The translations under genes were made by a program, and so were the position numbers. Below, piece by piece: positions 4,166 to 47,091 of a stretch of 47,091 nucleotides of DNA. Position 1 is the first letter of the stretch. Each line of letters begins with the position of its first letter. Origin of the DNA: Escherichia coli (GTDB taxonomy: Bacteria > Pseudomonadota > Gammaproteobacteria > Enterobacterales > Enterobacteriaceae); NCBI RefSeq assembly GCF_003334255.1, contig NZ_QOWU01000042.1; one strand, given 5' to 3'. Under the pieces are notes generated by a model, which was given only the letters and a program-made list of their open reading frames with translations, did no database searches and had not been told where the DNA came from.

Positions 4166-5122
4166 ATGTGGAAACGCTTACTTGTAGTCTCTGCAGTCTC
4201 GGCAGCCATGTCGTCTATGGCGTTGGCCGCTCCATTAACCGTAGGATTTTCGCAGGTCGGATCGGAATCTGGCTGGCGCGCCGCAGAAACCAATGTGGCG
4301 AAAAGTGAGGCCGAAAAACGCGGAATTACGCTGAAAATTGCCGATGGTCAGCAAAAGCAGGAAAACCAGATTAAAGCGGTACGTTCCTTCGTCGCGCAAG
4401 GGGTGGATGCGATCTTTATCGCTCCGGTGGTTGCGACTGGTTGGGAACCGGTATTAAAAGAGGCGAAAGATGCCGAAATCCCGGTCTTCTTGCTCGATCG
4501 TTCTATTGATGTGAAAGACAAATCTCTCTATATGACCACCGTCACTGCCGACAACATTCTCGAAGGCAAGTTGATTGGTGACTGGCTGGTAAAAGAAGTG
4601 AATGGCAAACCATGCAACGTGGTGGAGCTGCAGGGCACTGTTGGGGCCAGCGTCGCCATTGACCGTAAGAAAGGCTTTGCCGAAGCCATTAAGAATGCGC
4701 CAAATATCAAAATTATCCGCTCGCAGTCAGGTGACTTCACCCGCAGTAAAGGCAAAGAAGTCATGGAGAGCTTTATCAAAGCGGAAAACAACGGCAAAAA
4801 CATCTGCATGGTTTACGCCCATAACGACGACATGGTGATTGGTGCAATTCAGGCAATTAAAGAAGCGGGCCTGAAACCAGGCAAAGATATTCTGACAGGT
4901 TCTATCGACGGCGTACCGGATATCTACAAAGCGATGATTGATGGCGAAGCGAACGCCAGTGTTGAACTGACGCCGAATATGGCAGGTCCCGCCTTCGACG
5001 CGCTGGAGAAATACAAAAAAGACGGCACCATGCCTGAAAAGCTGACGCTGACCAAATCCACCCTTTATCTGCCTGATACCGCAAAAGAAGAGTTAGAGAA
5101 GAAGAAAAATATGGGGTATTGA
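4166..5122 (+). CDS. ytfQ: galactofuranose ABC transporter periplasmic binding protein
   Basis: 318 aa with a signal peptide. Matches K-12 YtfQ and is followed by ytfR, ytfT and yjfF. Confidence 0.96.
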   Translation: MWKRLLVVSAVSAAMSSMALAAPLTVGFSQVGSESGWRAAETNVAKSEAEKRGITLKIADGQQKQENQIKAVRSFVAQGVDAIFIAPVVATGWEPVLKEAKDAEIPVFLLDRSIDVKDKSLYMTTVTADNILEGKLIGDWLVKEVNGKPCNVVELQGTVGASVAIDRKKGFAEAIKNAPNIKIIRSQSGDFTRSKGKEVMESFIKAENNGKNICMVYAHNDDMVIGAIQAIKEAGLKPGKDILTGSIDGVPDIYKAMIDGEANASVELTPNMAGPAFDALEKYKKDGTMPEKLTLTKSTLYLPDTAKEELEKKKNMGY

Positions 5123-44392: not shown

Positions 44393-44530
44393 TTTTGGGT
44401 CCTTCTCTGGTGTTGTTTGGGAAGTGTAGAGCATGGCAGGGCGGGGTGCCTGGAGTGTGACAAAGGTTACATATCGCTGAGTGTAATGCTGAAAATTTCA
44501 GCACTTAGCGAGGTGGGTGCAAGCTGGCGC

Positions 44531-44558
44531 TTGCATGGTGGCGTGCGACAGGTATAAT
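44531..44558 (+). promoter_or_regulatory. leuX promoter
   Basis: -35 ttgcat (44531-44536), 16-nt spacer, -10 tataat (44553-44558), about 30 nt upstream of the mature tRNA 5' end. Confidence 0.7.
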
Positions 44559-44587
44559 CCACAACGTTTTCCGCATACCTCTTCAGT

Positions 44588-44672
44588 GCCGAAGTGGCGA
44601 AATCGGTAGACGCAGTTGATTCAAAATCAACCGTAGAAATACGTGCCGGTTCGAGTCCGGCCTTCGGCACCA
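44588..44672 (+). tRNA. leuX: tRNA-Leu (anticodon CAA)
   Basis: gccgaagtggcgaaatcggtagacgcagttgattCAAaatcaaccgtagaaatacgtgccggttcgagtccggccttcggcacca. It has a long variable arm, the anticodon at 44622-44624 and an encoded CCA. Confidence 0.97.
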
Positions 44673-44904
44673 AGTTACTAAATTCCTTACAATACAGTTA
44701 GTTAGACGATTAAATCTGTCTCTTTTGCCTGTAAGAAATGCTCTGTTATGTCCCTTGAAAAAGCCGCTGTGGTTGATAGTGGTAATTGGGATGTTAACTC
44801 ATAGCGGCGTGTCGTTCCAAGCGTCAAACACGTACTGACTCAACTTGAAAGCTATGACGTAGCCACCGTCTCTAAACAATCCCAAAACTTTTAGTGCAGC
44901 GCAT

Positions 44905-45120
44905 TTTAGCCCGATGCCCCCATTCTGTCGCCGTCGCGAGACGCCGCAGGGGATAAACAGGTTTATGGTGGTCACGGTACTTGCAGACCATATGCAAGCT
45001 CTGCCAGCGGTTCGGCCTCGCTCCCCTTGGGTACATGGTCATCCTGATAAGCCTCACTAACTGACATAACCCTGATGAAGTCGCAAGAGGCTCCGCTTGT
45101 TGTCTTACCACCAACGGGGC
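44905..45120. other. GC-rich non-coding block with multiple complementary segments (candidate structured RNA or gene relic)
   Basis: It is embedded in AT-rich DNA. Local hairpin cttgca/tgcaag (44980-44985 / 44993-44998). agcctc/gaggct (45050-45055 / 45087-45092). Long-range tggtggt/accacca (44966-44972 / 45107-45113). No convincing ORF in any frame. Confidence 0.3.
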
Positions 45121-45205
45121 TTTATGGATTCTATTGCTTAATATATGATTGTATCAAACTTAGACTGCATAATTTAAACGAACATAACAATCAGGCAGGG
45201 GAAGA

Positions 45206-46030
45206 ATGATAAAGCCATTTTCTGTGAGGTATGGTCATGTTGACGTTAGAGAGCATGTCCAGCTGAATGATCTTAATTCTGATACACGCATGGCATTGTG
45301 GAATTGCTTATATCTTTTCCTTTGGACTAACAATCGTCAAACTGCTACAGCAACAAAATGTGCGCAGTCTGTGTGGATATATTATCTAAATCAACCTGCG
45401 GATAATATTCCTCGTTATGAAAGTGGATACAAAAGTGATAAGACGTTGCTGACTGCTATCCGAGATTATATATATGGGGAAGCATGGTATTTGGTATATG
45501 ATTTAATTGAGTTCATCATTGAGAGAACTAATTCATATATTAATCTATCGAAGCATCTCAATTCCATCTTTAAAAAGCATGGCGTTGGTTATACCATAAT
45601 AAATGGTTGTATTACTCCTATTTCAAATGATAACGAAATTGAAAGTGTTCAGAACGCAGTTGATAATGGCACTGATTCATCGCGTAGCCATTTCGAAAGG
45701 GCGTTACAACTAATGACGGATAGAGAGCAGCCAGACTACAGAAACTCGATTAAAGAGTCTATCTCTGCAATTGAATCTTTATGCAGGAAAATCACGGGCA
45801 ATGATAAAGGAACCTTGGGGGCTTGTCTTAAAGCTATAGAGGAAAAAGGATATATACACTCTGCAATGAAAGGCGCTTTTAGTCAGCTCTATGGTTATAC
45901 AAGTGATCAGGGTGGAATACGTCATGCGCTAACAGAAGAAGATGTAAATCCTACCTTAGCTGAAGCTAAATTTATGTTAGTCACTTGCAGTGCGTTCAGT
46001 AATTATCTGTTGTCAAAAATAAGTGATTAA
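45206..46030 (+). CDS. AbiJ-like protein: AbiJ-type N-terminal domain plus HEPN/Abi_C-like C-terminal domain (274 aa)
   Basis: ATG follows GGGGAAG. The N-terminus FSVRYGHVDVREHVQLNDLNSDTRMALWNCLYLFLW resembles the AbiJ N-terminal domain pattern (FS.R.G....IQ.d....LRN.LWN) as I recall it. The C-terminus LYGYTSDQGGIRHALTEE plus a helical tail resembles the HEPN-like Abi_C motif. No search was run. Confidence 0.55.
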   Translation: MIKPFSVRYGHVDVREHVQLNDLNSDTRMALWNCLYLFLWTNNRQTATATKCAQSVWIYYLNQPADNIPRYESGYKSDKTLLTAIRDYIYGEAWYLVYDLIEFIIERTNSYINLSKHLNSIFKKHGVGYTIINGCITPISNDNEIESVQNAVDNGTDSSRSHFERALQLMTDREQPDYRNSIKESISAIESLCRKITGNDKGTLGACLKAIEEKGYIHSAMKGAFSQLYGYTSDQGGIRHALTEEDVNPTLAEAKFMLVTCSAFSNYLLSKISD

Positions 46031-46078: not shown

Positions 46079-46651
46079 TTATTCACCAGACTCTAATCTT
46101 TTTTCTCTTTTCTCATCTCTCCTTTTTATTGCCAAATCGTGTTGCTCTTGCAGATACGTGCGTTCTTCGTTTCTATCGCTTGAAGTATATACGTCTGCTT
46201 TTACTTTTTTAGCTCCTTGTGCAATAGGTTTCCAATCCTCTCTTATACCTTTAATTTGTTCTGCAATTTGCGTCAATGGGCTTCTCGCTCCTAGATAACT
46301 TATTCCTTCAAATGTCGCCATGTCATACACATATTCATTTGTTTCTCTATCGTTTGATTTAGGTTTGCTTGCCCAGCTTATATTAATATTATAAATTTGA
46401 TCTTTGATTTGTTCATACTTACAGAGATTGCTGGTAAGTGATTGCCCATTTTTTAACACGCTTACCTTACTAAACGGAATCTCACTTTTTTCTCTATGCT
46501 CCGCATTTACTAGTGGAGGATCAAACACAACCTCAACATTATAGGCAGGTGCGTTCCCTGTATTAGCAATGTTAATATCAAAGTAAAAAGCGGCCCAAGG
46601 GTTTGGCTCAAGTGTTACAACTATATGGGGTTGAGCTGATGCGTCAACCAT
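46079..46651 (-). CDS. hypothetical protein (190 aa from ATG 46651); predicted beta-rich N-terminal part and highly charged helical tail; 5' end uncertain
   Basis: ORF 46079..46705, but codons upstream of about 46672 are encoded by the IS911 terminal repeat. The listed GTG start at 46705 is therefore fortuitous. The first native ATG is at 46651 (MVDASAQPHIVVTLEPNPW...). No family recognised. Confidence 0.5.
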   Translation of the reverse strand: MVDASAQPHIVVTLEPNPWAAFYFDINIANTGNAPAYNVEVVFDPPLVNAEHREKSEIPFSKVSVLKNGQSLTSNLCKYEQIKDQIYNINISWASKPKSNDRETNEYVYDMATFEGISYLGARSPLTQIAEQIKGIREDWKPIAQGAKKVKADVYTSSDRNEERTYLQEQHDLAIKRRDEKREKRLESGE

Positions 46652-46679
46652 TCTTTTTGTCTCGTCTGCTCTGAAGTGG

Positions 46680-47014
46680 TGAAGTGGTTTACTGAATTTG
46701 GCCACCTGAACAGAGGTGATATGCTCACCTCAGAACAACACAGGTGCTCCAATGAAAAAAAGAAATTTTAGCGCAGAGTTTAAACGCGAATCCGCTCAAC
46801 TGGTTGTTGACCAGACATACACGGTGGCAGATGCCGCCAAAGCTATGGATGTTGGCCTTTCCACAATGACAAGATGGGTCAAACAACTGCGTGATGAGCG
46901 TCAGGGCAAAACACCAAAAGCCTCTCCGATAACACCAGAACAAATCGAAATACGTAAGCTGAGGAAAAAGCTACAACGCATTGAAATGGAGAATGAAATA
47001 TTAAAAAAGGCTAC
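46680..47014 (+). mobile_element. IS911 (IS3 family), left end and 5' part only, truncated by an IS30-family insertion
   Basis: The left terminal repeat tgaagtggtttactgaatttggccacctgaacagagg and orfA are near-identical to K-12 IS911 (insN) as recalled. The terminal octamer tgaagtgg occurs twice in tandem (46672-46679 and 46680-46687), so the exact end is ambiguous. Confidence 0.85.
46752..47014 (+). pseudogene. insN: IS911 orfA (InsN) interrupted after ...[10 protein letters not shown]
   Basis: [88 protein letters not shown]. The frame then runs into unrelated IS30-like terminal sequence. Confidence 0.85.
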
Positions 47015-47091
47015 TGTAGATTCAATCTGTCAATGCAACACCCCTTTCAATTATCTCTTTCGGTGTTTTGAACTTCAGTGTCTTTCTCGGT
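47015..47091 (-). mobile_element. IS30-family element, terminal inverted repeat plus the 3' end of the transposase gene (runs off the window)
   Basis: tgtagattcaatctgtcaatgcaaca resembles the IS30 terminal repeat (tgtagattcaattggtcaacgcaaca as recalled). The minus strand encodes ...[22 protein letters not shown] with its stop at 47022-47024 inside the repeat. Confidence 0.6.

Follow-up and report, generated by a model that had tools for sequence, protein, structure and literature searches.

The window analysed here, a 47,091-nt stretch of Escherichia coli DNA (contig NZ_QOWU01000042.1), ends in a chromosomal segment with the order ahr, leuX, 533 unannotated bases, an AbiJ_NTD4 gene, a convergent 208-codon open reading frame (ORF) and a fragment of an IS3-family insertion sequence (IS). 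A sequence-only reading had flagged a GC-rich block in the unannotated bases as a possible structured RNA. We are highly confident that this feature is real, conserved and structured. It corresponds to a core of ~240 nt, which is the most conserved, 3′ domain of a conserved non-coding module of ~470 nt starting directly after the tRNA. The best explanation overall, and in our judgement a reasonably probable one, is an element-encoded structured RNA module at the left attachment-site (attL) end of islands that integrate into tRNA genes.

The leuX copy of the block was found in 630 of 5426 complete E. coli genomes. A more sensitive search recovered further copies, 73-85% identical, which in other E. 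coli lie after glyU (tRNA-Gly(CCC)) and are also found on 65 plasmids of several enterobacterial genera. Scanning one genome per species with a sequence pattern returned 49 true copies from ~15 Enterobacterales genera, plus 5 chance hits. IMG/VR contributed 10 further copies, and a metagenome scan with a different pattern yielded over 100, 68 of them with core sequences not seen before; deposited phage GenBank records held no copy. In all, over 120 homologues from the Enterobacterales were compared. Conservation changes sharply at ~44899 and ~45140, beyond which the flanks vary between loci on both sides, and it also runs upstream of the flagged block as far as the tRNA end (44673). The conserved 3′ end lies 65 nt before the ATG of the AbiJ_NTD4 gene (45206), closer than the ~85 bp that the sequence-only reading had given. 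The GC-rich patch 3′ of leuX that this reading described is present: GC content is 0.54-0.57 in 44850-45099 compared with 0.39-0.47 just upstream and 0.30-0.44 downstream, no more than roughly what the flanking core genes have (0.46-0.63). The single copy of the core that nhmmer detects in the window is:

44899..45140 (~240 nt), plus strand: core domain of the predicted structured RNA, delimited by the conservation boundaries in alignments A1 and A2 and by covariation; essentially the flagged block.

Comparative evidence predicts that the core is folded on the plus strand into at least eight helices and three pseudoknots with strong covariation. In the layout derived, the long-range helix P1 closes two H-type pseudoknots (S1 with P2, and P3 with P4, which also holds hairpin P5), and a third pseudoknot joins the loop of P0 to the 3′ tail. 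Helices were identified by an all-against-all pair scan of alignment A2 and subsequent inspection, since RNAalifold gave a poor consensus on the raw MAFFT alignment. The elements are, from 5′ to 3′:

44901-03 / 44915-17, plus strand: hairpin P0 (GCA/TGC) with a conserved 11-nt loop, TTTTAGCCCGA; 94-96% paired, closing pair GC, GU, AU or UA.

44908-12 / 45117-21, plus strand: third pseudoknot, PK3 (AGCCC in the P0 loop, GGGCT), with a correlated indel.

44918-21 / 44949-52 (interval 44918-52), plus strand: variable hairpin Pv (CCCC/GGGG), read from A2 by eye.

44932-35 / 44940-43, plus strand: inner stem of Pv (CGTC/GACG) with a GCGA loop, likewise read by eye from A2.

44966-72 / 45107-13, plus strand: long-range helix P1 (TGGTGGT/ACCACCA); 95.5% paired in A2 and 99% in the metagenome set.

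44976-78 / 44987-89, plus strand: S1 (GGT/ACC), interleaved with P2 to form the first H-type pseudoknot (44976..44998).

44980-85 / 44993-98, plus strand: P2 (CTTGCA/TGCAAG); double-sided changes at 3 positions (CG/UA 22:22; UA/GC; GC/AU).

45006-09 / 45019-22, plus strand: P3 (AGCG/CGCT), interleaved with P4 to form the second pseudoknot (45006..45040).

45014-17 / 45037-40, plus strand: P4 (GGCC/GGTC); double-sided changes at 3/4 pairs, G-U in 33-44 sequences.

45023-25 / 45029-31, plus strand: hairpin P5 (CCC/GGG), between P3 and the 3′ strand of P4; loop CUUG, UUCG, GAAA, GCAA or UAAC depending on the member.

45041..45082, plus strand: highly conserved segment with no helix resolved (ATCCTGATAAG ... 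CTGACA ... CCTGATGAAGTC), a candidate functional core.

45083-85 / 45089-91, plus strand: short variable hairpin Px (GCC-AGA-GGC in close relatives); 81-84% paired.

Both strands of these helices change together. Within P1, G-C is replaced by A-U at two positions, in 9 and 12 sequences of A2 and in 16 and 16 of the metagenome set. S1 occurs as GGU/ACC, CGU/ACG, UUCGU/ACGAA or AACGU/ACGUU, with GC in 22-23 sequences compared with CG in 5-13. The two strands of PK3 vary in length in step: a loop with 3 C is accompanied by a tail with 4 G (n = 32) and a loop with 2 C by a tail with 3 G (n = 8), with three off-diagonal cases, and two loci (L002 and L068; L numbers denote individual loci) carry UUGCC/GGCAA instead. 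By eye, Pv changes in A2 from CCCC/GGGG to UCCC/GGGA, is GCGGCC-UUGU-GGCUGC in the B type of core and is replaced by different hairpins in other subfamilies. Px also differs in length between members (GCC-UAAC-GGC, GC-UAC-GC), and in the window an A at 45085 breaks one of its pairs. Within the conserved segment 45041..45082, CCTGATAA and CTGATG were part of both search patterns and their invariance is by construction; GTC and GCTCC, which lie outside the second pattern, are still at least 80-97% conserved.

Some pairings considered alongside these were not retained. Other partners for the 5′ strand of P1 (45081-85 and 45098-102) showed one-sided changes only, and for a terminal helix between the 5′ flank and the 3′ tail no sequence reached p<=0.05. 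A hairpin GCTCCG/CGGGGC (45090-95/45115-20), which competes with PK3, is invariant and thus neither supported nor refuted. Nor could CUGAUGA ... GUC be read as a hammerhead, as no GAAA or stem II/III arrangement fits and there was no Rfam ribozyme match. We also noticed by eye that the heptamer TTTATGG occurs twice as a direct repeat, at 44962-44968 and 45121-45127 of the window (GGTTTATGGTGG and GGCTTTATGGAT). Both copies are kept in most homologues, and the repeat could be a protein-binding site.

The fold was compared with displaced and shuffled controls. In A2, the 29 pairs of seven helices are 93.2% paired, compared with 28-41% when the 3′ partners are slid by 1-3 columns. Thirteen pairs changed on both sides, and cells with double changes number 111 compared with 30.5 ± 7.3 in shuffled alignments (0/500 shuffles reach the observed value), counts that overstate the number of independent events, the homologues being related and falling into few subfamilies. 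The same helices together with S1 are 95.0% paired in the 68 independent metagenome sequences that had not been used in the derivation, again compared with 28-41% after sliding. The compensatory changes that the sequence-only reading proposed to look for are thus present. All four complementary pairs that it quoted exist at their coordinates, and two of them, 44980-44985/44993-44998 and the long-range 7-mer 44966-44972/45107-45113, are supported by the comparative data as P2 and P1. The other two fared worse: the stem 45050-45055/45087-45092 exists only in the subfamily of the window, and the bases of the pseudoknot-like pairs gcgag/ctcgc and agggga/tcccct belong to other, covarying helices. 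The extensive self-complementarity it had remarked on is not above chance in the single sequence, which has a minimum free energy of -53 kcal/mol compared with -54.1 ± 3.8 for dinucleotide shuffles (z +0.28; minus strand z +0.42).

On the plus strand, G-U pairs outnumber A-C appositions 76:22 in the genome set and 114:7 in the metagenome set, which marks the plus strand as the strand that would be folded. The helices are capped by CUUG, UUCG, GAAA, GCAA and UAAC in P5, by UAAC or AGA in Px and by GCGA in the insert of subfamily A. Such caps (UNCG, GNRA, CUUG, UMAC) are families of stable RNA tetraloops, and together with the three pseudoknots they favour RNA over duplex or single-stranded DNA. 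With covariation added, the idea of a structured RNA put forward in the sequence-only reading is strongly supported, and we regard it as very probable that the block acts as RNA rather than as a DNA site.

None of the observations point to a coding sequence. Six ORFs of 37-80 codons in 44702-45209 gave no Pfam match even at E<=10, column entropy showed no 3-nt periodicity across 52 homologues (0.62, 0.63, 0.54), and 192 of 202 indel runs (95%) were not multiples of three. PGAP annotates no gene or pseudogene under the block in the 630 E. coli genomes. We also found no conserved small ORF of the kind expected for a hok-like type I toxin mRNA; members of the GAATAGTGG subfamily lack the ATG at 44964. 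The earlier statement that no frame of the block is protein-like therefore stands. The relic of a deleted gene, for instance an integrase fragment, had been offered as an equal possibility; an 80-codon ORF is present on the minus strand and islands at leuX often begin with an integrase gene, but the lack of Pfam matches, codon periodicity and annotated pseudogenes, the out-of-frame indels and the compensatory base changes lead us to reject it as having next to no probability.

The position of the core relative to tRNA genes is nearly constant. A co-oriented tRNA ends at a near-fixed distance upstream in 40/59 genome loci and 62/85 evaluable metagenome loci, and it is always tRNA-Leu(CAA), tRNA-Gly(CCC) or tRNA-Thr(CGT). 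In the metagenome set the tRNA end lies 260-321 nt before the equivalent of window position 44950, the distance in the window itself being 278 nt. Copies without a full tRNA, a plasmid copy included, have only a 3′ fragment of tRNA-Gly or tRNA-Leu in the same place. The sequence between tRNA and core forms a 5′ arm of ~230 nt:

44588..44672, plus strand: leuX, tRNA-Leu(CAA), from ARAGORN and the Rfam tRNA model (59.4 bits); the integration target, with the attachment (att) core at its 3′ end.

44673..44898, plus strand: 5′ arm of the conserved unit, Leu/Thr type, from alignments of 25 Leu/Thr-type and 30 Gly-type arms.

44763-68 / 44804-09, plus strand: putative arm hairpin (GCCGCT/AGCGGC), changing to GCCACT/AGTGGC, by eye.

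44857-60 / 44867-70, plus strand: putative arm hairpin (GACG/CGTC), changing to GACGC/GCGTC, by eye.

Arms are conserved within types that track tRNA identity. The subtype of the core does not track it: L014, at a Gly tRNA, has a window-type core, and L020 and L044, at Leu tRNAs, have B-type cores. The arm may belong to the same RNA as the core or may instead be an attP arm. Many Gly-type arms carry a 10-22-nt antisense copy of nucleotides 1-26 of tRNA-Gly (for example TCGTTCTACCATTGAAC and CTACCCATTGTACTACGCCCGC), which lies ~85 nt after tRNA-Gly in L002 (about 4861-4883), L019, L012 and L075 (10985-11008) and has alignment scores of 32-34 compared with a shuffle maximum of 23. We did not find it in Leu and Thr arms or in L014 and L024. 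Its sequence would allow pairing with the 5′ third of the tRNA transcribed along with it. A bridge-RNA-like guide for target choice was considered and rejected: the core subtype is independent of the tRNA, and the Leu and Thr arms have no tRNA complementarity.

These features of the arm bear on whether the block could be a DNA-level site, either a long attP arm whose inverted repeats bind protein or a site of folded single-stranded DNA resembling oriT, ssi or attC. Wherever it occurs, the block immediately adjoins the att core at a constant spacing, Gly-type arms have an IHF-consensus-like site after the core, and the arm subtype tracks the tRNA target; moreover, tyrosine recombinases that use folded single-stranded DNA exist (IntI with integron attC, XerCD with CTX phage). 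However, the strand asymmetry in the metagenome set is strong, the loops belong to RNA-specific stable tetraloop families, three pseudoknots and stems of variable length are unexpected for duplex protein-binding sites, and the core subtype tracks neither the tRNA nor the integrase type. We therefore consider a DNA-level site improbable.

Judged from the sequences, the module is the tRNA-proximal (attL) end of small Enterobacterales integrative islands inserted in the 3′ part of Leu(CAA), Gly(CCC) and Thr(CGT) tRNA genes. Complete elements are bounded by direct repeats of the tRNA 3′ end (L024, 3.5 kb; L062, 3.8 kb; L068, 13 kb) and have the order attL in the tRNA gene, arm, core, variable cargo, a tyrosine integrase on the opposite strand and attR. 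The integrase start codon lies ~100 nt from attR and faces the att site, with the gene reading away from it. The encoded proteins combine DUF6538, a SAM-like domain and Phage_integrase (DUF6538-type where tested). The same layout is found in E. coli EC24 (L075 10840-24900; NZ_CM169477.1 900839-914900), in which a complete 14-kb element lies between glyU and ygeQ. Its attR is a 52-nt repeat of nucleotides 22-74 of tRNA-Gly, and K-12, with 155 nt between glyU and ygeQ, represents the empty site. Besides the RNA module and the tyrosine recombinase, the EC24 element carries genes for a major capsid protein, for ribbon-helix-helix and helix-turn-helix regulators and for a 711-aa protein, as well as three small hypothetical genes. 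In L024, L062, L068 and EC24, the module abuts the att core, travels with it and has the integrase bounding the far end of the element, as expected for a flank of attP. At four other loci a DUF6538 integrase lies just before the tRNA fragment. Both L068 (head, tape measure, tail and replication initiator) and EC24 carry head, tape-measure, tail and replication genes, which suggests that the family includes small elements resembling phages or satellites. Antisense control of the integrase leader was rejected, as duplex energies were no better than those of shuffled sequences.

Use of one att site by more than one element is seen in the IMG/VR loci L065 and L073. Here a P4-like satellite, extending from a 422-aa integrase to a 777-aa alpha primase, lies between leuX and a leuX 3′ fragment, and the arm, a core identical to that of the window and the AbiJ unit are shifted ~10 kb from the tRNA. 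These two loci show that unrelated elements have used the same site serially. Diverged extra cores occur 1-2 kb further on in L014 (a second copy ~1.9 kb downstream), L015 and L049 (partial), on the same strand and with different genes after each; they indicate tandem accretion of island remnants. Two copies are truncated by later insertions or deletions: in L047 a tRNA-Gly 3′ fragment is joined straight to the core near its midpoint, roughly where position 45019 falls in the window, and in L038 the 5′ half is replaced by a tRNA-Leu 3′ fragment and a strong terminator.

Whatever lies between module and integrase is exchangeable cargo, with genes for defence and other accessory functions and, in some copies, for phage heads and tails. 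The first ORFs that follow the core in the same direction represent at least 19 unrelated families, often of defence genes, and share 8-21% pairwise identity with the AbiJ protein. These families include AbiJ_NTD4 (PDC-S32), PD-T7-4, a Mrr-type restriction enzyme, HNH nucleases, LysE, Tlde1, GNAT and DUF4145. In about one-third of the loci the first gene after the core is convergent; in E. coli 0H26, a 96.6% identical block at leuX is followed by a convergent 915-bp gene. The cargo gene of the window copy is:

45206..46030, plus strand: AbiJ_NTD4 / PADLOC PDC-S32 gene (Pfam 5.8e-27; PADLOC candidate defence family 5.6e-104), the first cargo gene.

The block lies upstream of this gene in the same orientation, which is the arrangement that had suggested a cis-regulator, or an RNA partner or antitoxin of the HEPN-type protein in the manner of a type III toxin-antitoxin system. 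The wider distribution speaks against it. The AbiJ gene is present in 469 E. coli genomes compared with 630 for the block and is missing from ~160 block carriers, so that the constant co-occurrence for which the sequence-only reading proposed a check does not hold. The block is followed by at least 19 other gene families, or by a convergent gene, rather than being paired constantly with one toxin family as a ToxI-like RNA would be, and Tandem Repeats Finder detects no ToxI-like repeats in 44600-45300 at a score of >=30. We regard a specific partnership with AbiJ as extremely unlikely and are highly confident that the block is a module of the element.

A more general possibility is that the block acts in cis as a leader for any cargo placed after it, be it as a riboswitch-like sensor, a processive antiterminator or a 5′ stabiliser, and lets heterologous genes be expressed from the tRNA side. 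A co-directional ORF begins 60-420 nt after the anchor in 39/67 loci, and we keep some weight on this idea because unrelated genes often start at anchor +137 to +173, that is 40-70 nt past the conserved end. The complex, compact fold resembles that of an aptamer or ribozyme, and the 3′ strand of PK3 overlaps the possible hairpin GCTCCG/CGGGGC followed by TTTAT, a candidate expression platform. Yet the cargo is heterogeneous rather than of one functional class and orientation: about one-third of the loci, the leuX locus of 0H26 among them, have a convergent first gene, some with a terminator-like hairpin (by eye) right after the block. The motif TTGCAC-N17-TAATCT, seen by eye after the block in several loci, would leave the block outside the cargo mRNA. 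The candidate terminator stem is invariant, loses one pair in one subfamily and passed the terminator scan in 17/146 regions, and a single ligand for 19 unrelated gene families is hard to imagine. On balance, we think a cargo leader unlikely.

The motif and the hairpin just mentioned were noted at the following loci. In L004, L015, L034, L035 and L053, the promoter-like TTGCAC-N17-TAATCT lies ~15-50 nt after the conserved end and before differing cargo (by eye), which suggests that some cargo cassettes may come with, or share, a promoter placed directly behind the RNA. In L012, L019, L030, L032, L038, L045, L046 and L048, a conserved hairpin, AAAGGCTGGATCTCTCCAGCCTTTG, is located ~25 nt after the core and before a convergent gene for a 377-395-aa protein; from its sequence, it is probably a bidirectional terminator.

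In the favoured reading, that of an element-encoded module at attL, the RNA would be made in the direction from tRNA to cargo, with transcription entering from the host tRNA gene or the tRNA/att junction, and it would be produced mainly in the integrated state. It would serve the whole element rather than one cargo gene, as a stable RNA or ribonucleoprotein (RNP) or as a unit that processes and insulates at the boundary between tRNA transcript and accessory genes. We favour such an element-level role because the integrase and the module are the only family-wide parts and the cargo is interchangeable. A bolder version, which we hold only tentatively, is that the whole ~470 nt from the tRNA end to ~45140 is one multi-pseudoknot RNA that is co-transcribed with the host tRNA gene or starts at its junction; as a self-processing ribozyme or RNP scaffold, it would represent a new class of functional RNA encoded by such elements, whose production might report integration and which might act in the island life cycle or in handling of the tRNA transcript.

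Several points weigh against the favoured reading. Expression, transcript ends and strand have all been read from sequence. The folding energy of the window sequence alone is unexceptional, and the relatedness of the homologues inflates the covariation counts, as described above. The arm hairpins appear to covary, a judgement made by eye. The link to the integrase is provided by three complete elements, EC24 and four tandem junctions, most loci being too short or too decayed to show an integrase. We found no family-wide sigma-70 promoter or intrinsic terminator: Leu-type arms have only a 9/12 promoter-like site straddling the tRNA end (44664-44693), and 3′ ends are terminator-like in only 17/146 regions.

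The copy in the window, which has no integrase and has IS fragments next to it, is probably an island remnant, and its RNA may be a functional leftover or may be decaying. Downstream of the AbiJ_NTD4 gene, 46079-46705 is the convergent 208-aa ORF, which has no Pfam match, and the IS3-family transposase fragment starts at 46750 and continues past the window edge (46750-47091). In relatives (L001), IS30 and IS3 debris follows, and then the fec operon. Such debris after the block fits a decayed island without its integrase.

E. coli and its relatives are the most thoroughly mined bacteria for non-coding RNAs, yet a ~240-nt domain with three pseudoknots is absent from Rfam 15. The domain defines a family of small tRNA-integrating islands that shuttle defence and other accessory genes and in which only the integrase and the RNA are conserved. 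If functional, it would offer a handle on island regulation, on the expression or insulation of cargo by a captured tRNA gene and on the defence hotspots at leuX, glyU and thrW. The block is present in common laboratory and probiotic strains (Nissle 1917, ATCC 25922, E. coli C and ATCC 11775), and the RNA is directly testable in tractable strains.

We compared the block with known families. The Rfam/Infernal scan proposed in the sequence-only reading matched it to none: with the 4227 models of Rfam 15 (including STAXI, c4, int-alpA, HEARO, hammerhead, group I/II introns and riboswitches), window 44400-45400 at E<=10 gave only the tRNA and noise, and seven diverse relatives at E<=0.5 gave tRNAs only. 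A literature search on DUF6538 integrases, on islands at leuX, glyU and thrW and on structured RNAs near tyrosine recombinases returned nothing relevant, and we know of no description of such an RNA in a tRNA/att-linked position.

STAXI is an orphan pseudoknot motif of enterobacterial mobile DNA near integrase genes, for which the same question of RNA or single-stranded DNA has been raised. The block is likewise an orphan motif built of pseudoknots in enterobacterial mobile DNA near integrases. Whereas STAXI repeats a simple pseudoknot, the block combines three different ones in a single large domain whose distance from a tRNA is fixed, and cmscan gave no match. ROOL and GOLLD are large ornate RNAs that are often found in prophages next to tRNA genes. 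The block shares with them the character of a large multi-pseudoknot orphan RNA in phage-like elements adjoining tRNA genes, but it is smaller (a core of ~240 nt, ~470 nt at most), confined to Enterobacterales and tied to an att site and an integrase family, and has no Rfam match.

Integration would also change the linkage of the RNA structure, as for the sib retroregulator of lambda, a single RNase III hairpin that lies downstream of int in the int transcript, across attP. Unlike sib, the block does not lie downstream of int in its transcript: int has its start codon on the att side and is read away from att. The folded strand of the block also runs away from int, and its structure is much more complex. 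The P4 CI RNA and the c4 antisense RNAs of P1/P7 are element-encoded regulatory RNAs of satellites and prophages using leuX; c4 is in Rfam, and the P4 CI RNA is ~70 nt long and is encoded within the immunity region, away from the att end. The block resembles them in being element-encoded and in its leuX site, and P4-like satellites lie just upstream of it in L065 and L073. It differs in having no match to Rfam c4 and in standing at the att end, and the P4-like elements inserted separately and encode an integrase of their own. Integron attC and CTX-phage attP(+) are folded single-stranded recombination sites in which structure is conserved over sequence. The block resembles these in having a conserved structure beside a tyrosine-recombinase site; in its case the tetraloops of RNA type, the G-U asymmetry and the pseudoknots speak rather for RNA, and the core does not co-vary with the target tRNA. 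The block differs from each of STAXI, ROOL/GOLLD, sib and CI/c4 in its position, orientation or architecture, and we rate it as a new family of orphan structured mobile-element RNA.

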